A stretch of DNA of 59,692 nucleotides from NCBI GenBank assembly GCA_002452615.1, contig DKES01000021.1:1-59692 (forward strand). Reading direction: 5' to 3'. This DNA comes from Patescibacteria group bacterium UBA6816. Its GTDB lineage: Bacteria > Patescibacteriota > Patescibacteriia > UBA2591 > UBA6264. Under the pieces are notes generated by a model. That model was not told the origin of the DNA. It searched no databases and saw nothing but the letters and a program-made list of their open reading frames with translations. Each line of letters begins with the position of its first letter. Within the stretch, counting starts at the first letter, position 1. Shown one piece after another: positions 7,192-44,436 of this stretch. The position numbers were made by a program, and so were the translations under genes.

Positions 7192-8550
7192 TTAATCTTG
7201 AGTTAAAATTTTCTTTATTTGAGAAAGTTCTTTTTGAACTTTCTTTTCATTATCAGCCTCTACGGTTAAACGAAGAATTGGTTCTGTGTTAGAAAAACGC
7301 GCATTAAACCACCAATTTTTTCCCTGAACAGTTAAACCATCTTCCTGCCATTGAGTCTCCTGATGATAAAAGTGGGCTAATTTTTCAATTATTTCTTCTT
7401 TATTTTGATAAATTTTAAAATTTTCTTCTTGGCGAGGATAATGCTTAAATTCTGCGATTAATTCTGATAAAGTATAGTTGTCTTGGGATAATATTTCTAA
7501 CATTAAAAGAAAAGCTCGGCCTCCGGATTCATTGTAAAAAACATCTCTAAAAAATAAATGTCCGGAATTTTCTCCTCCTAAAACTGCTTCATTGTAACGC
7601 ATATTTTCTCTCACAAAAGGATATCCAGTGATACTTCTAATTGGCTTACCTTGATATTGAAGAATTGTTTCTGGCACTACTTGAGAGCAATCTCCAGTAT
7701 AAACTATTTTTTCTTCTTTTTTTCTAGATAAATATTCTCGGGCAAACAAAGCAATTACTAAACTAGCAGAAATAATTTTTCCTTTTTCATCAAGAAAAAC
7801 AGTTCGGTCCCCGTCTCCGTCAAAGCTTAAACCAAAATCCGCTTTTTTTTCCTTAATTTTTTCTTGACAAGCCTTAAGAGCATTTTTTTCTTTAGGATTA
7901 GGACTTCTTTTAGGAAAACGACCATTGGGTTTAAAATAAAGGGGAAATAATTTAAAAGGCAATTTCTTAGATAATTCCCTAATTATTTTTCCAGCTGGAC
8001 CATGGCCGGCATCAACTACTACTTTTAAAGGTTTGATTTTTTGAGGGTCAATTAGATTTAACAAATATTTAAGATAAAAGGGTAGTAAATTTTTTTTCAC
8101 CACGCTAGTTTTTTTTCTCCTTAAAAATTTTTCTCCAGCTAATTCTTTAATTCTTTCTAATCCATTTTCTTGATAAATGGGAGTGGTTTGACTAGAAAAT
8201 ATTTTAAACCCATTATATTCTTTGGGGTTATGTGAGGCTGTAATCATCACTCCTCCTTCATAAGGAAAATAGCTTAAGCTGAAATATAAGAGGTCAGAAG
8301 AAACAAGGCCTAAATTAATTATTTTTCCTCCTTGACTATTCACTCCTTTAATAAATTCTCGAGAAAGGATGGGTGAAGATAAACGCGCGTCTCGACCCAA
8401 TAAAATCCTAATTTCTTTTTCTGGTTTTTTTAATTCTCTGCTTAAAAATACTACTAAAGCCGCCCCAATTCTAAAAGCAGTTTCTTTGTTAATTTCCTCC
8501 GGATAAATTCCCCGGACATCATAAGTTTTAAAAATAGAATTATTAATCAT
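7192..8550 (-). CDS. phosphoglucomutase/phosphomannomutase family protein
   Basis: Phosphoserine loop TASHNP and metal loop FDGDGDR. 452 aa. Confidence 0.9.
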   Translation of the reverse strand: MINNSIFKTYDVRGIYPEEINKETAFRIGAALVVFLSRELKKPEKEIRILLGRDARLSSPILSREFIKGVNSQGGKIINLGLVSSDLLYFSLSYFPYEGGVMITASHNPKEYNGFKIFSSQTTPIYQENGLERIKELAGEKFLRRKKTSVVKKNLLPFYLKYLLNLIDPQKIKPLKVVVDAGHGPAGKIIRELSKKLPFKLFPLYFKPNGRFPKRSPNPKEKNALKACQEKIKEKKADFGLSFDGDGDRTVFLDEKGKIISASLVIALFAREYLSRKKEEKIVYTGDCSQVVPETILQYQGKPIRSITGYPFVRENMRYNEAVLGGENSGHLFFRDVFYNESGGRAFLLMLEILSQDNYTLSELIAEFKHYPRQEENFKIYQNKEEIIEKLAHFYHQETQWQEDGLTVQGKNWWFNARFSNTEPILRLTVEADNEKKVQKELSQIKKILTQD

Positions 8551-9248
8551 TTTTGAGCAATTACAACTAAGTTATGACCTTTTCGCCAATTAGTTTTTTG
8601 TCCTTGGCGAGTATAATAAACCTCTTTTAAACAAAACCCTGCTTTTTTAATTATATTTTTTAACTCTCTTTTAGTAAAGGCATGGTAATATCTGGAAAAT
8701 TCTTGATGCTGATGTTTAAAGGGAATAATTGTTTCTTTAAAACCAAAAAATATTTTTCTTAAATGATATTTTTTTATTAAACGAGGCTGATAAAGATTCC
8801 AAACTGTTAAAATTAAATATCCTTTTTTATTTAAAAAATGAAAACAATCTTTTAAAAGTTTAATTCTTAATTCTTGACTCGGTAAATGATGTAAAAAGGC
8901 AATCGCAAAAATAATTTCAAACTGATTTTCTTTAAAGGGTAAATTTAAAGCATCAGCGTTTAAAAATCTATCTTTGGGAAATTTTTTTTGAGCTTGATAA
9001 ATTAAATTTTTTGATTGGTCCACTCCTAAATAATCTATTTCTTTATCTTTTAAAAAAAGATTTAGTCTTCCGTTTCCGCAGCCTAAATCTAAAACCCGAT
9101 CCCCTTTTTTAATGTATTTTGACCAATCCTTAAACTCGGGCCAAAAATAACCCCGAGTTTGAGAAAATTTATCAGCAATTTCTTCCCAAATTTTTTTATT
9201 TTCCGCCAAGATTGCTTTAATTTTTTTTGTTTTCATTGTTTTTATCAT
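8547..9248 (-). CDS. class I SAM-dependent methyltransferase
   Basis: SAM motif I VLDLGCGNGR. Overlaps the downstream gene by 4 nt. Confidence 0.85.
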   Translation of the reverse strand: MIKTMKTKKIKAILAENKKIWEEIADKFSQTRGYFWPEFKDWSKYIKKGDRVLDLGCGNGRLNLFLKDKEIDYLGVDQSKNLIYQAQKKFPKDRFLNADALNLPFKENQFEIIFAIAFLHHLPSQELRIKLLKDCFHFLNKKGYLILTVWNLYQPRLIKKYHLRKIFFGFKETIIPFKHQHQEFSRYYHAFTKRELKNIIKKAGFCLKEVYYTRQGQKTNWRKGHNLVVIAQK

Positions 9249-9477
9249 AATTTAAATTTTCAAACAAATCAAGAGTTAATTTAAAACCTTCGTTCCAAAA
9301 CCATTTTAAAATCACCTCTAATTCCCAAGGAATGTTTTTCTTTACCAAACGACGGGATAAAAAATTTTTAAAGTGAAAATGTTTTATTTTTAGAAAAACA
9401 TGTTATGATTAAATAAGTTAAACAACCTTAATTTAAAAATAATTTTAAATCAGAATAGATTTAAATAGATATTTATC

Positions 9478-11055
9478 ATGGATCAACCAACAAAAAAAAT
9501 AATTGAATTGACCAAAGAATTAGCCTTAAAAAAATTTTCTAATCATGAAGATTTTTTTAAACTAATTCAAAAAATATGTTCAAAAAAAGAAATCCCCCTG
9601 CCTCGTTATAGTGAAATTTTTGCGGTTTATCAAAAATTAAAAAAACAAGGGAAAATTAAAAAAAACCCTTTTTTAGAAGAAATAAAAAAAAGACCAATTC
9701 GTTCTCTGTCCGGAGTAGCAATAGTGGCTGTTTTAACTAAACCCTGGCCTTGCCCAGGTCAATGTTTTTATTGTCCTTTAGAAAAAGGGGTGCCCAAAAG
9801 TTATTTATCCGGAGAGCCAGCAGTAGAAAGAGCTAAAAAATTAAATTTTGACCCTTATCTTCAGGCTAAAAAAAGAATCGAAATTTTAGAAAAAAATAAT
9901 CATCCAGTTGATAAAATTGAATTAATTGTTATTGGAGGAACTTGGTCTTATCTTCCCTCAAAATATCAAACCTGGTTTATTAAGCGTTGTTTTGACGGCG
10001 CTAATTTTTCTTCTAGTAAAAATCTAGCCGAAGCTCAAAAAAAGAATGAAAATTCAAAACATAGAATTATTGGTATTACTTTAGAAACTCGCCCTGACTA
10101 CATTGACGAAGATGAGTTAAGAAGAATGAGAAAATTGGGATGTACTAGAGTTGAAATTGGAGTCCAATCTACTGATAATAAAATTTTAAAGAAAAATAAA
10201 AGGGGCCACGGAGTTGAAGAAACAATAGAAGCAACAAGGCTTTTAAAAGATGCTGGTTTTAAAATTTGTTATCACTTAATGCCTGGCCTTTATGGTTCTT
10301 CTCCTAAAAAAGATTTATTAGTATTTAAAAAAATATTTTCTCAGCCAGAATTTCAGCCCGATATGATTAAAATATATCCTTGTGTTGTTACTAAAGGTTC
10401 TCAACTATACCAAGCCTATAAAAAAGGTGAATATAAACCATATTCTGATAAACAACTAATTAATCTTTTAATTAAAATAAAGAAGATTATTCCACCATAT
10501 GTTAGGATAAATCGATTAATCAGGGATATTCCCTCTTGGCAAATACAAGGAGGAAGTAAGGTGTCTAATCTTAGACAAACAATTCAAGAAAAAGCCAAAG
10601 AACAAGGAGTCTTTTGTCAATGTATTCGCTGTCGAGAAATTAAAACAGGAAAAATTAAAAAACAAGATTTAAAATTAATTAAAAGAGAGTATTCAGCATC
10701 AAATGGAAAAGAAATTTTTCTTTCTTTTGAAAATGAAAAAGAAAATAAATTAATTGCTTTTTGCCGTTTAAGGTTGCCAGAAAAAAATAATAAGTTTATT
10801 TTTTCTGTTCTCAAAGATAGTGCTTTAATCAGAGAACTTCATACTTATGGTCAATTAGTTGAAATTGATAAAAAAAATAAAAAAGCATCTCAACATTTAG
10901 GGTTGGGCAAAAAACTAATTAAAGAAGCGGAAAAAATTGCCCGAAAAAAAGGATATCATAAAATGGCCATAATTGCCGGAATAGGAGTTAGAGAATATTA
11001 TCGCCATTTAGGTTATCGTTTACAAAACACTTATTTAATTAAGTTATTAAAATAA
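9478..11055 (+). CDS. Elp3-like radical SAM/GNAT enzyme
   Basis: 525 aa. Cluster motif CPGQCFYCP followed by a radical SAM core. C-terminal acetyltransferase-like HLGLGKKLIKEAEKIA. Confidence 0.85.
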   Translation: MDQPTKKIIELTKELALKKFSNHEDFFKLIQKICSKKEIPLPRYSEIFAVYQKLKKQGKIKKNPFLEEIKKRPIRSLSGVAIVAVLTKPWPCPGQCFYCPLEKGVPKSYLSGEPAVERAKKLNFDPYLQAKKRIEILEKNNHPVDKIELIVIGGTWSYLPSKYQTWFIKRCFDGANFSSSKNLAEAQKKNENSKHRIIGITLETRPDYIDEDELRRMRKLGCTRVEIGVQSTDNKILKKNKRGHGVEETIEATRLLKDAGFKICYHLMPGLYGSSPKKDLLVFKKIFSQPEFQPDMIKIYPCVVTKGSQLYQAYKKGEYKPYSDKQLINLLIKIKKIIPPYVRINRLIRDIPSWQIQGGSKVSNLRQTIQEKAKEQGVFCQCIRCREIKTGKIKKQDLKLIKREYSASNGKEIFLSFENEKENKLIAFCRLRLPEKNNKFIFSVLKDSALIRELHTYGQLVEIDKKNKKASQHLGLGKKLIKEAEKIARKKGYHKMAIIAGIGVREYYRHLGYRLQNTYLIKLLK

Positions 11056-27397: not shown

Positions 27398-27460
27398 ATA
27401 TTTTTTTGAGAATCCAACCCCTTGTCTATATTTTCCCTCAAGGGTCAGACCTCTTTATTT

Positions 27461-27505
27461 ATGCCTGCCCTGTAGTGAACGCAAAGCGTTCTACTACTGG
27501 GGTTT
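27461..27505 (+). repeat. solitary 47-nt-type hairpin unit (B unit)
   Basis: atgcctgccctgtagtgaacgcaaagcgttctactactggggtttt is the same unit as the 39548..39735 array. It abuts the TGA stop at 27506. Confidence 0.9.
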
Positions 27506-29782
27506 TCATGGTTGATAATGCCAAATCATAACTGAACCAATTCTTTCCGGCTCTCCTAAAAGAAAATTTAATTGGTCAATAATCTCTTCTCTCCGGGCAA
27601 AATAAATCCAAGATTCTTCAGTCATAAAATAACACTCTTTGGCTCCGGTAATAATTAAAGATTTTTTTAAATCCCTTAAAGAAGGATTTTTGTTCATATT
27701 ATCAAATAATTGTACTCTTTCTGGCTGACGATATTCATAATAATAAGGAAATCCACCGGTAATAATTTGGCGGCCAGAAACCCCTTCTAAAGCCAACAAA
27801 GGCCAGGTGTTAGCTAAAACACAAAAAGGACCTGGTTGGTCTTCGAATTTTTCCCAAAGATATTCTGCCGCTTGATATTCATCTGCAGTGACTACTTGAA
27901 ATTTAGGACCAGAAGCATAAACCGTACTAGATAAAAGAGCTAAGAATAAGCCTATCGCTATAATCATGGCTGAAGGAGCAAAAATTCTTTTTGTTTTTAA
28001 AACTAAATTATAAAGCCCCCAGGCCAAAGGAAAAAAGAATAAAAAAGAAACAAACATAACCAAACGTTTACTTAAAAGATTGTTCCCTTCTAAAAAATAA
28101 TAAGAAATTCCCTGATTAAGAAAAACAAGCAAAAGTAAAAGTAAAAACAACCATCCTATTTGAGGATGCTTTAATTTTTTATAAGAAAACAACGCCCCTA
28201 AGCCAATTAACCAAACTAAAGGAGTTAAAATCAAAGCCCAGGGCAAAATATCTATAAAAACTGCCCGAGATAATTTTTGATCCAAAGAGGCATAAAGCCA
28301 ATTGTCTTGCTCCCAACCATAAATCCGCGGAAAAATGGGCTGAGAAAAAATTAATTTCTGGGGAAATTCTTTCAACATTAATTGACTATTAGTTTTAAAA
28401 TCTGTTTCAGTTTTAAGCCAAGAATACTGGTTATAAGTTTCTAAACCTGGAATAAGAATTAATAAAAACACAGAAAAAATAATAATCAAAGGTAAAAAAA
28501 CTTTTTTATTCTTTTTTTGATTTTTAAACAAAAAAGCTAAAGCTAAAATTTCCAAATAAAGAATTAAATAAAGTAAATAATTAAAATACAAAAATAAAGC
28601 CAAAAGAATTAAGGCACCAAACAATTTTAAAGAAGAATTTTTTTGTTTTAAATATTTAATAACAAAAATTAAAGCAAAAACAAAAAGGAGAAAAGAAAAA
28701 CTTACCGGCATAGTAATACTCCCATAAGCTTGCCAGGGATAAAAACAAAAAGGCATTAAAAGTAATAAACAAAGAAATTCTTTTTTTGAGGAAAAAAACA
28801 AACCTATTTTTAAAAGCAAAAGAGGTAAAAAAATAGAAAATAAAAGCCAGCCTAAAATCAAATCCCAATAAAAATTATCTAAACCAGTTAACCAGGATAA
28901 ACCAATCACCAGTCCCCACATATTAGCGTAAGAAGTTTTATTCCCTACCACTAAAACTTGGGGAACTTTTAAAGGGCCTATTTCAACAAATTCTGCTTCG
29001 GGCCCAATTAAACTAGGAGCATAAACTTGTCCCTCCATTAACCATTTTTCCGCCCCTAAATGGCGCCATTTATCTCCTCCAAATCCGGTTTGATAAGGAA
29101 TAATAAGATAAGCGTGTCCCAAAAAAGAAATTAAAATAATTAAAATTAAAAATGTTTTTAGTTTTAAACGAGAAAAAGCCAAAATGGTTAAAATAAAAAT
29201 AAGTGTTCCCCAGGCATAAAGATAAAAGGGATGAATAACTGTCCAAGGGGAACGAATAAATTGACCGGTGCGGGAATAAAAAAGCAGAAAAAAAGAACCA
29301 AAAAATAAAAAAACCCCCAAAACATAAATTATTTTTTTAACTTTTTGAAAATAATCTTGTTCTACTTTTTCTGCTAAACTAATAGCGCGGGGTTCTGATT
29401 TTCTAGTTTTACTTATGATAGAAATAAGTAAAGTTAGAAAAATCAAATAAAAAAATAAATAAGCTGGGGTGACCCGGATAATAATAATTGGAATTGCCAA
29501 ACCAAACGCAATTAAAAATAAAAAACAAAAAAGTCCAAAAATAGTCTGTAATTCTTTTTCCCAACCATAACGATTTAAAATTTTTCCTAACCAAACTGAA
29601 TTAAAAAAGAAAAAAATAAAAAGACAAAGAATATTAAAAAAATAAGACCATCCGCCCAAAGGCAAAGATTCCCCTTTCCTGGCGAAAAAATTTAAATACC
29701 AAAAAATTATAGTTAAAATAGCTATGCCGGTAAAAAAATATTTTTTATTGTCTTTTAATTCTTTAATTATTTTACTCCACAT
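27506..29782 (-). CDS. large polytopic membrane protein (758 aa), possible GT-C-type glycosyltransferase
   Basis: More than 15 hydrophobic helices plus a C-terminal soluble domain. Overlaps the upstream GT4 gene by 11 nt. The function is inferred from architecture and context only. Confidence 0.8.
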   Translation of the reverse strand: MWSKIIKELKDNKKYFFTGIAILTIIFWYLNFFARKGESLPLGGWSYFFNILCLFIFFFFNSVWLGKILNRYGWEKELQTIFGLFCFLFLIAFGLAIPIIIIRVTPAYLFFYLIFLTLLISIISKTRKSEPRAISLAEKVEQDYFQKVKKIIYVLGVFLFFGSFFLLFYSRTGQFIRSPWTVIHPFYLYAWGTLIFILTILAFSRLKLKTFLILIILISFLGHAYLIIPYQTGFGGDKWRHLGAEKWLMEGQVYAPSLIGPEAEFVEIGPLKVPQVLVVGNKTSYANMWGLVIGLSWLTGLDNFYWDLILGWLLFSIFLPLLLLKIGLFFSSKKEFLCLLLLMPFCFYPWQAYGSITMPVSFSFLLFVFALIFVIKYLKQKNSSLKLFGALILLALFLYFNYLLYLILYLEILALAFLFKNQKKNKKVFLPLIIIFSVFLLILIPGLETYNQYSWLKTETDFKTNSQLMLKEFPQKLIFSQPIFPRIYGWEQDNWLYASLDQKLSRAVFIDILPWALILTPLVWLIGLGALFSYKKLKHPQIGWLFLLLLLLVFLNQGISYYFLEGNNLLSKRLVMFVSFLFFFPLAWGLYNLVLKTKRIFAPSAMIIAIGLFLALLSSTVYASGPKFQVVTADEYQAAEYLWEKFEDQPGPFCVLANTWPLLALEGVSGRQIITGGFPYYYEYRQPERVQLFDNMNKNPSLRDLKKSLIITGAKECYFMTEESWIYFARREEIIDQLNFLLGEPERIGSVMIWHYQP

Positions 29783-37347: not shown

Positions 37348-37412
37348 GCCAAATTCATTAAAAATTATGAATTATGAAATAATGAAATGATTTTTACTAT
37401 AAATTTGAGCAT

Positions 37413-37430
37413 CCCTCACCCACTTTCTTT
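37413..37430. repeat. left arm of an inverted repeat in the pheS-pheT spacer
   Basis: ccctcacccactttcttt is complementary at 16 of 18 positions to 37597..37615. Confidence 0.7.
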
Positions 37431-37596
37431 CAGAAAAAACTGATTTAAGTTATGAGTGTATGGATAAACAGAATTAACTTTAATATATTTTACTTTTTAA
37501 ACCTTTTATTTTTTTTCTGATAAGGTTTGATAACTGAAAAAATGAATAAAAGGAATTTAGATTTATTATAACTTATTTACCTTAAACTTAAAAATT

Positions 37597-37615
37597 AAAG
37601 AAAGTTGGTGCGGGG
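37597..37615. repeat. right arm of an inverted repeat in the pheS-pheT spacer
   Basis: aaagaaagttggtgcgggg. See 37413..37430. Confidence 0.7.
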
Positions 37616-37683
37616 TAAAGGTTTTTTAACAATAATTCCTGCTCCTTCGCCAAGCTCAGGATTGAAATTATTGGAAAAACTCT

Positions 37684-38740: not shown

Positions 38741-39184
38741 TTATTCTATTTTATATTGCTTGCGAGAAGAAAGAAAAAATAATTCTAAAAATATTAAAAA
38801 AATCAAAAAAAGCAAACTATTCCACCAGCGCAACAATCCTATTCCCTGTAAAATCATTAATCCAATTAAAAAAAGACTGAGCCAGGTTCCCTGACGAAAA
38901 GAAACTTCTACCTGTTTAAAAACTGGCCCCTTTTTTCTTCGCGCCCAAATAATAAAACCCAGTAAAGAAAAAACACCAAGAGTAGCCAAAAATAAACTAA
39001 AATAAAATAAAATAAAACCAATTAAACCGGTTTCTTTGGGATTAACAAAAAATAAAACCAGGGCCCAAATCAGCCAACAAATCAAAGTTAAAACAAGCAT
39101 TAAATTAAGATATTTCTTTAAGGTCATATTTTCAAATAATAAATTAATATAATCTGTAATTATGAAGAGATCACCAATCCCCAA
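38741..39184 (-). CDS. hypothetical membrane protein (147 aa)
   Basis: Four hydrophobic helices. Confidence 0.65.
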   Translation of the reverse strand: MGIGDLFIITDYINLLFENMTLKKYLNLMLVLTLICWLIWALVLFFVNPKETGLIGFILFYFSLFLATLGVFSLLGFIIWARRKKGPVFKQVEVSFRQGTWLSLFLIGLMILQGIGLLRWWNSLLFLIFLIFLELFFLSSRKQYKIE

Positions 39185-39228
39185 ATACTCAATCCTTATT
39201 CTAATGCCTGCCCCGTAGTGAACGCGAA

Positions 39229-39384
39229 GTGGGAACTACGAGGCGAGACCTCGTAGGTGGAAACTTGTTTGTGGGAACTACGAGGCGAGACCTCGTAGGT
39301 GAAATCTTGTTTGTGGGAACTACGAGGCGAGACCTCGTAGGTGAAATCTTGTTTGTGGGAACTACGAGGCGAGACCTCGTAGGT
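39229..39384 (+). repeat. tandem array A: 42-nt unit, 3 full copies plus 1 truncated (degenerate copy at 39432..39469)
   Basis: The unit is gtgggaactacgaggcgagacctcgtaggtgaaatcttgttt. Each unit carries the hairpin CTACGAGG-cgaga-CCTCGTAG. Copies start at 39229, 39271, 39313 and 39355. Confidence 0.95.
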
Positions 39385-39479
39385 AATGTTTTAATGTTCT
39401 TTGGACAAGGTCGAACCTTGTCTATTTTTAAGTGGGAGGTATCTACGAGGCGAGACCTCGTAGGTGGAATGTTCTAATG

Positions 39480-39524
39480 TTTTTCCCAATCCCCAAGTAC
39501 CCAGGTTCCCAATCCATGTTCTTA
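39480..39524. repeat. 45-nt dispersed element, copy 2
   Basis: tttttcccaatccccaagtacccaggttcccaatccatgttctta. See 11196..11240. Confidence 0.85.
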
Positions 39525-39547
39525 TGTTTTTACGTTCTTATGTTTTT

Positions 39548-39735
39548 ATGCCTGCCCTGTAGTGAACGCGAAGCGTTCTACTACTGGGGTTTTTATGCCT
39601 GCCCTGTAGTGAACGCGAAGTGTTCTACTACTGGGGTTTTTATGCCTGCCCTGTAGTGAACGCGAAGCGTTCTACTACTGGGGTTTTTATGCCTGCCCTG
39701 TAGTGAACGCAAAGCGTTCTACTACCGGGGTTCTA
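39548..39735 (+). repeat. tandem array B: 47-nt unit, 4 copies
   Basis: The unit is atgcctgccctgtagtgaacgcgaagcgttctactactggggttttt. Copies start at 39548, 39595, 39642 and 39689. Each has an imperfect long hairpin with a GCGAAGC core. A half unit at 39204..39229 is fused to array A. Confidence 0.95.
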
Positions 39736-39780
39736 GTGTTTCTATATTATATCAATTTCCCTTATTCCTGACAAGAAAAA

Positions 39781-42735
39781 TTATTCTTGGCGATAAGGGC
39801 AAATGGGAAAATAATCACAATGTTGACACATATAACCAGGTTGAGGAGGAAATTCCTTTTTCTCTATTTTGGCAATAGTTTCAACAATATCTTTTTTTAA
39901 ATCTTTCAAATCTTTTGACTCCCCTAAAAAAGAAACTTGCTCCCCTGACTCTAAATAATAAAAAGTTAAATTATTAACTGGTTTAGTAAAAACTTGAGGT
40001 AAACTTTCCATGGCCATTTGATAAAGCAATAATTGTTGCTTATTATCTTTACTTAATTTCTTTTTTTGCCCAGTTTTATAATCAATAAGATGATAACCCC
40101 CTTCTTGTTCATCAACCCGATCAATAACCCCTTTAATAGTATCCTGGCCTATTTTAAAATTAAACTCTTTTTCCAAGTATTTTATTTTTGGAGGATTTTT
40201 TATAAAATCTTGATAAAAAATTTTTAAGGCTTTTTTACCTTTTTCCCAGTATTCTTTTTTTTGTTCCTTATTTTTATACCAATCATCAATCCAAGCCTGT
40301 TCATAAATTTTTATTAAATCATCAAAATTTAATCCTTTGACCTCTTTTGGTTTGCCAAACAAATCCTTTTGTTTTGCTTGTTGGTTTTTTTGCCAATCCA
40401 AACAAAATTGATAAAGAGTCTGATGCATAGTTTTACCAAAACTAAAAACTGCTTTCCCTCGCCGAGGAACTTTTAAAACAAAAGCAAATTTGTATTGCAA
40501 AGGACAAACATTAAAAGCAGTAAACTGAGAAAAACTAAATTTAGAAGGTAAAACAAAATTAAAATCCCCCTTTTCTTCAGATATTTCTTTATTTTTTTCT
40601 AAAATACTACTGGCCATTAATGTCTTTTTCTTTTTATCTTCATCTATTAAACCTAATTCATACAAAAATCTAGACAATTTTTTAGAGGTTTTTCCACCAT
40701 AATCTTCAGCAGAAGTTAAATAAAGCCCTTGTTTAGCCCGGGTTAAAGCCACGTAAAATAATCTTCTTTCTTCTTGTAGATGAATGTCTCCTTGGGGAAT
40801 AATTTCTTTAATTAATTTTTCTGGAATTTCAATAGGGTCACGCCGCTCAATAGTGGGAAAACGCCGGTCCACTAAATTAACGACAAAAACGTATTTGAAT
40901 TCTAAACCTTTGGCGCTATGAATTGTACTCACTTTAACTGCTTCTGGACCTTCTTCTATTTCTGCTTTCATAGAACCAGTGTCGCCAGTAGAAATCATTA
41001 AATCAATCATTTTTATAAAATTAGGTAAAGAAGCATCAAAATTAACTGACTCGAAACTTTCTACCTTTTTAAAAAACTGATTCAACCAAAAAATATTTTC
41101 ATTTTGTTGGCGCTCTTGTTTTTCCTGATTAGTTAAAATTTGTAAATAACCGCTATCTTCTAAAAAAGCGTAAATAACCCGGCTAACACTTTTTGTTTTG
41201 GCTAAAATTGTATGTTTATCTACTTGCGCTAAAAATTCTTCCAAAGCTTGGATTGTTTTAGAAGACAATTGAGGAATAGTTGTGGCTTGCTTAACAGCCT
41301 CATAAAGGGACAAACTTTTTTTATTGGCATAACTGGTTAACCGCACTAAATCCTCATTACTAATTTTATCCTTAAAAACAGGCGAAGATAAAACGCGATA
41401 AACAGCTGAACCTTCATGATAATTATCTAGTAATTTTAAATAAGATAAAATATCCAAAATAAGGGGTTTGGAAAATAAACCGCGTCGAGCCAAAAATTGG
41501 TGCGGTATTCCAGCAAAATTTAAAGCCTGAACAAAAATTTCCGCCTGACTATTAGCCCGAGCTAAAATAGCAAAATCATTCCAAGTTGATTCTTGGTCCT
41601 GTTTTTTTAACTCCATTATCTTTTTTATCACTCCCCTAGCCTCATCTTCTTGAGTTTTAAAATGTAAATGAGCGGTTTCTGGCTGACCCTTTTTCATGGC
41701 GATTAATTTTTTAACCACTTCTTTTTCCTGGGCCTCTAAACGAGCCGGGTTGTTTTGTTGAATAAAATTATATGACAAATCTAAAATCTGCTGTTGAGAA
41801 CGGTAATTATTTATTAAAACTATTTGTTTGGATTTAGAATAATCTTTTTTAAACTGCAAGACGTTATTATAAGAAGCTCCCCGAAATAAATAAATTGCCT
41901 GGTCATCATCAAAAACGACCGTGATATTATTCTTAGGTTGGGCCAACATCCGCAGTAATTGATACTGGGCCCAATTAGTGTCTTGGAATTCATCCACTAA
42001 AATATATTTGAATTGTTCTTGATATTTTTCTAAAATTTGAGGTCTTTTTTCAAAAAGTTTTAAAGTATAATTAATTAAATCCCCAAAATCCAAAGCATTA
42101 TTATCTAAAAGTAATTGTTGATAAGTGCAATAAGCATTAGCCACTTCTTTAATTCGGGCTGTTTCTTGGTCTAAAGATTCTCCAGACATGGTGGTATCCT
42201 TGTCTTGTTTTAAATTTTCCGCATATTCCAAATATTCTTCCGGGGTAATTAATTCATCTTTGGCCCGGGAAAAATGTTTAACCAAACTCCGCACAAACTT
42301 AGTTGGATTGCCCAAGGGTTTATAATAATCTAAATCAAATTTATCTAAGTTTTCCTGAACTAAAAAACTTTGTTGGGTTTCATCTAATAATTTAAAATTA
42401 ATCGGTAAACCAATGTCCAAGGCATGTTGTTGTAAAATTCTTTCGCAAAAAGAATGAAAAGTAGAAATCCACAAATCCACATAACCATAAGGTAAAAGGC
42501 GGTCCACTCTTTCTTCCATTTCCTGGGCCGCTTTTTCTGTAAAAGTTAAAGCTAAAACTTGATTAGTTTTAACTAAACCCTTTAAAATTAACCAAGCTAA
42601 GCGCTTGGTAATAACCGTAGTTTTTCCTGTTCCTGCCCCGGCAATAATTAAAAGAGGACCTTCTTTATAAGTCACTGCTTTTAATTGCTCTTGATTTAGT
42701 CCTTGAATAATATTATCTTTAGAATTTTCTCCCAT
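39781..42735 (-). CDS. UvrD/PcrA-type helicase fused to a PD-(D/E)XK (Cas4/AddB-like, Fe-S) nuclease
   Basis: Walker A GAGTGKTT and DEFQDT. The C-terminal nuclease region has IDYKTG and Cys ligands NVCP plus CQHCDYFPIC (CxxCx5C). Confidence 0.9.
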   Translation of the reverse strand: MGENSKDNIIQGLNQEQLKAVTYKEGPLLIIAGAGTGKTTVITKRLAWLILKGLVKTNQVLALTFTEKAAQEMEERVDRLLPYGYVDLWISTFHSFCERILQQHALDIGLPINFKLLDETQQSFLVQENLDKFDLDYYKPLGNPTKFVRSLVKHFSRAKDELITPEEYLEYAENLKQDKDTTMSGESLDQETARIKEVANAYCTYQQLLLDNNALDFGDLINYTLKLFEKRPQILEKYQEQFKYILVDEFQDTNWAQYQLLRMLAQPKNNITVVFDDDQAIYLFRGASYNNVLQFKKDYSKSKQIVLINNYRSQQQILDLSYNFIQQNNPARLEAQEKEVVKKLIAMKKGQPETAHLHFKTQEDEARGVIKKIMELKKQDQESTWNDFAILARANSQAEIFVQALNFAGIPHQFLARRGLFSKPLILDILSYLKLLDNYHEGSAVYRVLSSPVFKDKISNEDLVRLTSYANKKSLSLYEAVKQATTIPQLSSKTIQALEEFLAQVDKHTILAKTKSVSRVIYAFLEDSGYLQILTNQEKQERQQNENIFWLNQFFKKVESFESVNFDASLPNFIKMIDLMISTGDTGSMKAEIEEGPEAVKVSTIHSAKGLEFKYVFVVNLVDRRFPTIERRDPIEIPEKLIKEIIPQGDIHLQEERRLFYVALTRAKQGLYLTSAEDYGGKTSKKLSRFLYELGLIDEDKKKKTLMASSILEKNKEISEEKGDFNFVLPSKFSFSQFTAFNVCPLQYKFAFVLKVPRRGKAVFSFGKTMHQTLYQFCLDWQKNQQAKQKDLFGKPKEVKGLNFDDLIKIYEQAWIDDWYKNKEQKKEYWEKGKKALKIFYQDFIKNPPKIKYLEKEFNFKIGQDTIKGVIDRVDEQEGGYHLIDYKTGQKKKLSKDNKQQLLLYQMAMESLPQVFTKPVNNLTFYYLESGEQVSFLGESKDLKDLKKDIVETIAKIEKKEFPPQPGYMCQHCDYFPICPYRQE

Positions 42736-44178: not shown

Positions 44179-44436
44179 CTATTCTAACATTTCTTCTTCC
44201 ATTTCTGGTTCAGCTTCCATTTCTGGTTCAGCTTCCATTTCTGGTTCAGCTTCCATTTCTGGTTCAGCTTCCATTTCTTCTTCAGCTCCTATTTCTGGTT
44301 CAAAAGTTTCTGGCATTTCCTCTTCAAACATTTCCTCTTCTGGTTCTTCTTGTACTGGTGCCATGGTACAACCACTCACTAAACCTAGAACTAAAACTAG
44401 ACCAAGAAAAGAAAATAAAAATTTTGATTTCTTCAT
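44179..44436 (-). CDS. acidic repeat lipoprotein (85 aa from ATG 44436)
   Basis: Signal peptide plus lipobox MKKSKFLFSFLGLVLVLGLVSGC. Four perfect 18-nt repeats at 44209..44280 encode EAEPEM. The track ORF start at 44523 is an upstream extension that overlaps the neighbouring gene. Confidence 0.7.
   Translation of the reverse strand: MKKSKFLFSFLGLVLVLGLVSGCTMAPVQEEPEEEMFEEEMPETFEPEIGAEEEMEAEPEMEAEPEMEAEPEMEAEPEMEEEMLE

Follow-up and report, generated by a model that had tools for sequence, protein, structure and literature searches.

The window analyzed here, a 59,692-nt stretch of the genome of Patescibacteria group bacterium UBA6816 (assembly GCA_002452615.1, contig DKES01000021.1), contains a non-coding island at 39128..39780, assigned to neither strand, in which two kinds of hairpin, here called A and B, are repeated in tandem. 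The island is probably a cluster of repetitive extragenic palindromic (REP) elements, similar to a bacterial interspersed mosaic element (BIME), of a system of REPs and REP-associated tyrosine transposase (RAYT) in the candidate phyla radiation (CPR). It extends from the stop codon of a UvrD-type helicase fused to a PD-(D/E)XK nuclease (39781..42735) to the probable ATG of a small membrane protein without a Pfam match, followed by PheS and PheT, all encoded on the minus strand. A shorter spacer of 596 nt (39185-39780) follows from the TTG start at 39184 (147 aa) given by the open reading frame (ORF) finder. The ATG at 39127 (128 aa) is the more likely start since homologues in related genomes are 127-129 aa long, and it sets the limits at 39128-39780.

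The hairpin arrays and their setting

The earlier note on this DNA had described two tandem hairpin arrays in the spacer, and both Tandem Repeats Finder (TRF) and the positions of exact cores place them there. The A array (39229..39384, plus strand) consists of 3.7 copies of a 42-nt unit (TRF period 42, 98% matches, score 298), each with the hairpin CTACGAGG-CGAGA-CCTCGTAG. The exact core CTACGAGGCGAGACCTCGTAG, 21 nt long with an 8-bp stem, occurs five times (39236, 39278, 39320, 39362 and 39443), the last of these being a fifth, detached hairpin at 39443..39463 on the plus strand. The B array (39542..39732, plus strand) comprises four 47-nt units (TRF period 47, 4.1 copies, 97% matches, score 361) which match a covariance model of B with 67-72 bits. 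Each unit is composed of an 8-nt linker, TTTTTATG, and the 39-nt element GCCTG-CCCT-GTAGT-GAACGC-GAA-GCGTTC-T-ACTAC-T-GGGG, whose hairpin takes up 35 nt with 15 pairs and two bulges; cores start at 39559, 39606, 39653 and 39700. Dinucleotide shuffles of the sequence give an expectation of 0 A cores and 0 B cores, and the island units are 97-98% identical over their whole length.

Single units fold into the hairpins already described on both strands, B with -18.4 (plus) and -18.1 (minus) kcal/mol and A with -12.8 and -13.4 kcal/mol, respectively. The differences recorded earlier between the B copies, a T at 39621 that gives a G.T wobble on the plus strand and a change from G to A in the loop of the last unit, are as stated, and the last unit has in addition C instead of T as a bulge base. 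The half B unit reported at 39204..39229 is real and somewhat longer (39199-39231, recovered as repeat family D4). As the covariance model of B spans 39203-39247 end to end (20.2 bits, full model length), it forms part of a complete B/A hybrid unit (39199..39247, plus strand), in which the 5' half of B, ATGCCTGCCCCGTAGTGAACGCGAAG, runs directly into the 3' side of an A-type unit, TGGGAACTACGAGG.

Several features had escaped the earlier note. A solo B unit at 27460..27506 (plus strand, 70.8 bits), with the same orientation as the island B units, sits in a 108-nt gap between two minus-strand genes and begins 1-4 nt past the stop codon of a 758-aa gene. It is adjoined by a fragment, AAGGGTCAGACC (27441-27452), of a third repeat that is also found at the RAYT locus L084/L085 described below. 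Within the island, an unrelated hairpin at 39402..39430 (plus strand), TGGACAAGGT-CGA-ACCTTGTCTA followed by TTTTT, is terminator-like on the plus strand only. Repeats of the 8-mer ATGTTCTT and its variants (39516..39550, plus strand) lie beside the B array, and the motif CCAATCCCCAA is duplicated in the spacer (39174-39191 and 39486-39503). A C-tract motif, CAATCCCCAA(T/G)..., is common to the window (39174-39191 and 39483-39520) and the spacer of the closest relative, L077; its complement on the minus (mRNA) strand consists of GGG/GGGG runs 3-5 nt apart, from which a G-quadruplex could form. Two plus-strand ORFs of 82 and 74 aa (39229-39477 and 39432-39656) are products of the repeats and spurious, and should not be annotated as genes.

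Directly past the helicase stop codon there is a promoter-like site on the minus strand (39746..39774; TTGTCA-17-TGaTATAAT), with 11/12 matches and a TG extension. In the spacers of L077, L081 and L078 a comparable arrangement, TTGTCA/TTGCTA and TGnTATAAT/TATTAT separated by 16/17 nt, is readable. Judged from these sequences, the island would be the 5' leader of a small-protein/pheS/pheT transcript on the minus strand. On this strand B is followed by CAGGCAUAAAAAC and A by UUCCCAC, T-runs being found only on the plus strand; neither A nor B thus has the hairpin and U-run of an intrinsic terminator on the transcribed strand.

Helicase homologues come from Patescibacteria. Four relatives are syntenic, with helicases 63-74% identical and the order TatD - helicase - small protein - PheS - PheT, and in these the same spacer is 68-169 nt long and has neither A nor B units. 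The spacer of L077 is filled with the 8-mers that also flank B copies in other genomes and contains the motif CAATCCCCAATCCC, without A or B, which makes the hairpins later additions to an existing spacer. At the corresponding point of its leader, L077 carries a hairpin of another kind.

The helicase protein was found on five contigs. An independent assembly, L001 (ENA ERZ27315029), contains the identical 596-nt spacer, whereas L002 and L003 (NCBI GCA_002440775.1) have 2 B units instead of 4 and their contigs stop within the A array; the L004 contig stops in the last B unit. The units themselves are therefore real but their number is not secure, the copy number of B being either polymorphic or beyond short-read resolution.

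A hairpins and a RAYT family of Patescibacteria

In a single metagenome scan, the exact A core was found in 11 metagenome contigs without other similarity to the window, both as solo copies and in arrays. Transposase genes of the CPR were found by a scan for the HUH...Tyr motif and then confirmed with Pfam; E. coli RayT used as a probe gave no match among the sequences collected. The scan singled out one ORF on L064, a contig with eight A copies. The encoded protein of 239 aa matches Pfam Y1_Tnp above the gathering score (E = 5.5e-11) and has intact HUH (NHYH) and Tyr (YIHINP) motifs. Its gene has A arrays on both sides and one A copy in-frame inside it, and the same association of A with a RAYT gene was observed on L063.

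At each of five RAYT loci (L064, L084/85, L087, L088 and L092) a hairpin variant specific to that locus occurs on both sides of the gene, upstream and downstream, as well as within it; the stems are CTAC..GTAG, GTAC..GTAC, TTAC..GTAA and GCGG/CCGC. The hairpin is GTACGAGG-TTCGA-CCTCGTAC at L087 (GCA_021735685.1), TTACGAGGC-GAA-GCCTCGTAA at L088 (Nealsonbacteria) and GTACGCGG-TCTCG-CCGCGTAC at L092 (an ENA contig). Translation of the copy inside the gene gives TYEVSPRR, MYEVRPRT, SYEASPRK or MYAVSPRT, in agreement with the local hairpin in each case, and the terminal tetranucleotide of A, GTAG in the window, is GTAC or GTAA in other genomes. The CPR RAYT family has 4,573 homologues; of the named ones among the best 120, nearly all belong to Patescibacteria lineages, and most are on very short contigs. 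An alignment of 13 CPR RAYT proteins shows no variation at N83 H84 x H86 or at Y144 x H146 x N148. Identical hairpins that flank and invade RAYT genes, and the co-variation of hairpin and enzyme, argue strongly for the A hairpin as the cognate REP of a Y1/HUH transposase.

The GTAG next to the palindrome had earlier been taken as a clue to REPs and RAYTs, although no RAYT was seen in the window. The clue was apt. The same assemblies encode a RAYT flanked by the same A hairpins with a B unit attached, and the window itself is indeed without such a gene according to a phmmer search of its six-frame translation with the CPR RAYT as query. This RAYT, P0122 (L084/L085), is 71% identical to the L064 protein. 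Its contigs belong to ERZ27315029 and ERZ27315056, the same two assemblies in which the window's contig is found, and both end in repeats adjoining the gene. The order on L084 is ligA, a B unit in reverse orientation (9596-9639), five A hairpins with the third repeat, the RAYT gene with an in-frame A copy (10001-10708) and more A hairpins. The third repeat, GAGGCTGAGCCTC then CAGGGATTAGGGTCAGACCCCAAGGGGTCAGACCCTG, has a period of ~98 nt and is interleaved with the A hairpins (L084 9740-9925; L085 60-140 and 960-1040).

Another A hairpin, at L084 7870-7890, lies inside the gene for NAD-dependent DNA ligase (ligA, 7548-9581) and leaves it uninterrupted; REPs inside replication and repair genes have been reported in other bacteria (PMC3733652). 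In tetranucleotide signature, the coding part of L084 and the window correlate at r = 0.90, the reference values being 0.83 and 0.96 for same-contig controls and 0.87-0.91 for close relatives. A further RAYT, P0123, comes from the metagenome-assembled genome (MAG) JAHIMV01; three B copies in this MAG are flanked by 8-mers like those of the window.

The B hairpin in other genomes

The earlier note had proposed a search for the units in other genomes, which recovered them in both solo and tandem form. In an exact-pattern scan of a set with one genome for each species, 56 stretches contained the B core. Nearly all belong to Patescibacteria, across many classes that include Saccharibacteria, Magasanik-, Falkow-, Sung-, Nealson-, Kaiser-, Giovannoni-, Ryan- and Wildermuthbacteria. 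There is usually one copy per contig, with several in some genomes (MAG CAZJVL01: 6 contigs) and three tandem variants on L040. The conserved block is about 40 nt long (GCCTG-CCCC-GTAGT-GAACGC-GAA-GCGTTC-T-ACTAC-T-GGGG). Viral contigs gave 0 matches to the A core and 0 to the B core.

The B copies are mostly intergenic, between co-directional (27) or convergent (9) and never divergent (0) genes (ORFs >=80 aa), and both B sites of the window are between co-directional genes. No gene family is tied to B, the nearest neighbours being unrelated (80 singletons); the neighbour families that recur, rpoD, dnaG, infB and pilin-like proteins, are housekeeping genes. A strong orientation bias of B was likewise dropped on recomputation, which gave 19:8 only. 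On whole short contigs, 10 of the 26 B matches are within 250 nt of a contig end where 3.6 would be expected (p = 0.0016), an enrichment of the kind that multi-copy repeats cause in assemblies.

The earlier note regarded the variation between B copies as a sign of structure-constrained evolution, and this holds in the wider set. With the strand as written, 99.2% of pair cells in B are standard pairs, and there are 23 G.U-type wobbles vs. 3 on the opposite strand. The exact-core set shows almost no two-sided covariation, as expected from the search pattern. The covariance model additionally finds diverged members in L040, L028, L053, L065 and L031, which keep YTKCCCC-GTAG, the GAA loop and the closing GGGG and have compensatory changes in the inner stem (pair 17:34 is TA, CG, GC or AT; pair 20:30 is AT, GC or TA). 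GTAG is invariant in the 42 exact-core copies and present in 8/9 diverged members, being fixed even when its partner has changed to CTGC, CTAT or CCTTC.

In some genomes B is a module in a larger conserved and apparently structured intergenic element (5' ...GGCGGTGT..TTGAAA.TAGTCCGAAC...; 3' AAGTTTTTCTTTGGCGGCAAAT). The motif AAGTTTTTCTTTGGCGGCAAAT(TC) is near-invariant and lies 10-90 nt 3' of B in about 20/58 copies from different lineages (L005, L007, L014, L017, L023, L031, L035, L038, L046, L058 and L059); it also occurs without B. The upstream block pairs with the sequence before this motif in several loci, with compensatory changes, and the combined structure has no Rfam match. A non-coding motif, TTCTTTGGCGGCAAAT, is likewise found 3' of B in about 20/58 copies and also without B. 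At gathering thresholds Rfam identified only a tRNA in the window, and a permissive search of the island and L031 gave only miRNA/snoRNA noise. An origin of the B-flanking motifs from tRNA, tmRNA or 5S RNA was discarded, as ARAGORN and Rfam gave no overlapping RNA gene; a suspected resemblance to 5S RNA was not borne out.

At six loci (L010, L015, L022, L028, L040 and L043) B is followed on the 3' side by GGGGCTTTCCGCCGCCGCCGAATTTCGTG and then a second hairpin with compensatory variants (CCAGT-GAA-ACTGG, CCAGC-GAA-GCTGG and ATTTCGC-TTT-GCGAAAT), so mixed hairpin clusters appear to be common in CPR spacers. On L008 (424-525) B is placed exactly between GCAGG and TTCGAATCCTGC-CGGGGACGA, within the apparent T-arm of a tRNA 3' fragment. 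An intact tRNA-Arg precedes it by 13 nt, and the arrangement looks like an insertion event. L015 is a 2.9-kb contig bounded by 156-nt inverted repeats (1-156 and 2740-2895; 99% complementary) that contain B and a second GAA-loop hairpin; between them are ORFs for an XRE-type helix-turn-helix protein, a methyltransferase-like protein and a product of 286 aa. L015 may be a composite element, or else its assembly ran into a repeat on either side.

Origin of the island and comparison with known systems

The evidence for the two elements differs in strength. B appears to be a second, REP-like element, as suggested by the invariant GTAG 5' of a variable palindrome, the bulges, the wobbles on one strand, the extragenic location and the occurrence in both solo and tandem form. 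Its link to the RAYT is indirect, by resemblance and association, and more tentative than that of A: B adjoins A arrays both in the window and at the RAYT locus, and one unit is a hybrid of the two.

By analogy with characterised RAYTs, the transposase would bind the folded single-stranded A hairpin and cut and rejoin the DNA beside it, moving the element in trans; B would probably be handled like A, though the evidence for this is weaker. The hairpin units may have landed in an older spacer rich in 8-mer repeats. Local multiplication could have followed by slippage or unequal recombination of element plus 8-mer unit, or by repeated insertion into successive 8-mers; the 47-nt period of B is the length of the 39-nt element and one 8-mer together. 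Recombination between B and A would then account for the hybrid unit. The mRNA would carry stable hairpins in the small-protein/pheS/pheT leader. As these are not followed by a U-run on the mRNA strand, they should not terminate transcription and would be tolerable upstream of essential genes, any effect on mRNA stability being a by-product.

Some observations weigh against this interpretation. The best NCBIfam match of the L064 ORF, 'REP-associated tyrosine transposase', scores 42.6, below the cut-off of 80, and a profile of the 13 CPR proteins has only marginal PDB matches, to ISDra2 TnpA and E. coli TnpA-REP (E about 0.02). The tetranucleotide correlation fits a shared genome of the RAYT contig and the window without being proof of it. 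Within 8-kb windows, B is next to a RAYT or A-family hairpins only in the window and on L084. Known copies are few, with two loci in about 78 kb and the RAYT locus besides. More than 40 species of many Patescibacteria classes, i.e. deep CPR lineages, share an identical 40-nt B sequence, whereas REPs are usually lineage-specific. GTAG does not form an unpaired tag: in A as in B it pairs with CTAC. Finally, the orientation of B relative to genes shows a weak trend (19 antisense vs. 8, p = 0.05; range p = 0.05-0.15, less with longer ORFs). In the opposite orientation the hairpins would look terminator-like, and as a matter of speculation this may explain the weak antisense excess.

It is possible, although rather less likely than not being so, that B is more than a passive REP, given its identity in so many species and the strand-specific constraint on its structure. 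Either a REP/RAYT system may be moving between deep CPR lineages, or the element may have been co-opted by the reduced genomes for a conserved host function. Movement between lineages is perhaps aided by the reliance of CPR bacteria on DNA uptake.

The earlier note named three candidates: REP/BIME-like elements, a protein-binding array, and elements for RNA processing or stability. Only the REP/BIME-like character is supported. A dedicated protein-binding array is not, save for binding by the RAYT itself, and an RNA role may be a secondary effect that is not needed for the explanation. That the hairpins are kept mainly as RNA elements of the pheS/pheT leader, where they would stabilise the 5' end or be sites of processing while the solo unit protects a 3' end, with only a secondary resemblance to REPs, is unlikely, even though the conserved promoter-like site would make the island the extreme 5' part of the transcript, the minus-strand hairpins are stable (-18.1 and -13.4 kcal/mol), L077 has its own hairpin in the leader and the solo B directly follows a stop codon. 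The wobbles preserve structure on the strand opposite to the mRNA (23 vs. 3 cells), close relatives manage without A and B, the same units adjoin unrelated genes elsewhere and no Rfam family matches. The plus-strand constraint would suit the units as one-way intrinsic terminators (hairpin plus GTTTTT) that shield the operon from antisense transcription, as would the T-run after B on that strand and the two plus-strand terminator-like sites flagged in the island by a scan. We nevertheless consider such a role improbable: the T-run is not conserved, with GGGGGACG, GGGGCGGG and GGGGAGGC common as flanks of B, no plus-strand gene or promoter here would need termination, and the association of A with RAYT genes would be unexplained. 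Neither RNA stability nor plus-strand termination explains why the units are absent from relatives.

A purely local tandem duplication or an assembly artefact without any wider family, which the earlier note had named as the outcome that would undo its description, might be suspected from the near-identity of the units and from assemblies that break in the island and disagree on the number of B units. It is very improbable, and as an account of the existence of the units it is excluded by their dispersal (B in 56 stretches elsewhere, A in 11 contigs, a solo B in the window) besides the identical spacer of L001. An array of guide RNAs, of CRISPR type or of the tandem interspaced guide RNA (TIGR)-Tas type, is hardly credible. 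TIGR stem-loop arrays do occur in parasitic bacteria (PMC12045711) and resemble the island in being intergenic and composed of tandem hairpin units, in a parasitic-type bacterium. They have variable 8-12 nt spacers and an adjacent Nop-domain Tas gene (PMC12045711), whereas the units here are near-identical without variable spacers, no box C/D pattern was seen or looked for, solo copies are scattered among unrelated genes, and the Pfam lists for the neighbourhood contain no Nop-domain, Cas or other effector. For Nop these lists cover 1-12.8 kb and 29.8-59.7 kb of the window, 12.8-29.8 kb not having been scanned for this domain.

The preferred interpretation as a REP cluster agrees with much of what is known from other bacteria. 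REPs of the GTAG super-family are imperfect palindromes of about 20-40 bp with an unpaired GT[AG]G tag at the palindrome end; they lie outside genes, for the most part downstream of ORFs and where the adjoining genes are unidirectional or convergent, and occur in many dispersed copies per genome as singletons, dimers and tandem clusters (PMC3733652). A REP-RAYT system (REPtron) comprises a Y1/HUH transposase gene flanked by its repeats, in the same genome as these, and an enzyme with intact HUH and Tyr motifs that binds and cleaves the single-stranded hairpin in a strand-specific manner (PMC8266576, PMC6006769); for the last of these features, the confinement of wobble pairs to one strand of B gives indirect support here. 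An invariant GTAG 5' of a variable palindrome, bulges and tolerance of wobbles on one strand are likewise among the described features of REPs and of their recognition by TnpA-REP (PMC3733652, PMC8266576). The system described here shares with REP/BIME and RAYT of E. coli, Pseudomonas and Stenotrophomonas the short imperfect palindromes with a GTAG-type tetranucleotide, the extragenic position between co-directional or convergent genes as singletons and tandem clusters, the G.T pairs and bulges in stems, and a single Y1/HUH gene flanked by its own hairpins, which co-vary with the transposase. It differs in that GTAG/CTAC is inside the stem and the terminal base of A varies (GTAG, GTAC, GTAA), in the low known copy number in a CPR host with a reduced genome and the identity of B across classes, and in that the island consists of head-to-tail units of two types instead of inverted pairs (REPINs). 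The earlier note took the head-to-tail arrangement as an argument against REPs; this does not hold, since head-to-tail REP dimers and tandem clusters have been described (PMC3733652).

Among the TnpA-Y1 subclasses of Quentin et al. 2018 (PMC6006769), REP copies inside the tnpA-REP gene are a reported hallmark of 2.4, and the CPR proteins resemble 2.8 and 2.6, by motif only, in the NHYH-type HUH motif and the YIHxNP Tyr motif. Subclasses 2.4 and 2.8 were, however, described from a sample of Cyanobacteria, Bacteroidetes and a few other phyla that did not include CPR bacteria (PMC6006769). The IS200/IS605 family (IS608, ISDra2) similarly has a Y1 HUH transposase that acts strand-specifically on subterminal single-stranded hairpins, and the CPR profile weakly matches ISDra2 TnpA, but the hairpins here are free-standing 21-47 nt units and not the two ends of a 1-2 kb element that carries the transposase. 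REP/RAYT systems are thus already known, best from Proteobacteria and a few other phyla, and seem to be undescribed in Patescibacteria; the searchable open-access literature contains no description of RAYTs in this group or of the A and B sequences.

If this interpretation is true, a large RAYT family persists in streamlined genomes of about 1 Mb, each member with its own hairpins, which bears on the survival of selfish or domesticated DNA under strong genome reduction. It would also account for CPR metagenome contigs often breaking at these repeats, and hairpin plus RAYT would provide a simple marker for gene flow among CPR lineages. For annotation, it is relevant that real genes, namely ligA and the RAYT gene, can contain hairpins inserted in-frame.

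Two other variable sites were observed in the window. The pheS-pheT spacer (37348-37683) has a conserved long-range stem, GAGCAYCCCKCACCCACTTTCTTT ... AAAGAAAGTKGGKGCGGGGTAAAGG, around a variable insert, and measures 336 nt in the window, 285 nt in L078, 373 nt in L079 and 8 nt in L081; it may be another insertion-prone structured spacer. At 44196-44302, inside a minus-strand ORF, there is an 18-nt coding tandem repeat of 5.9 copies (plus-strand consensus CTTCCATTTCTGGTTCAG), in which the window has two units (36 nt) more than L001 and L002 and is the same as L003.

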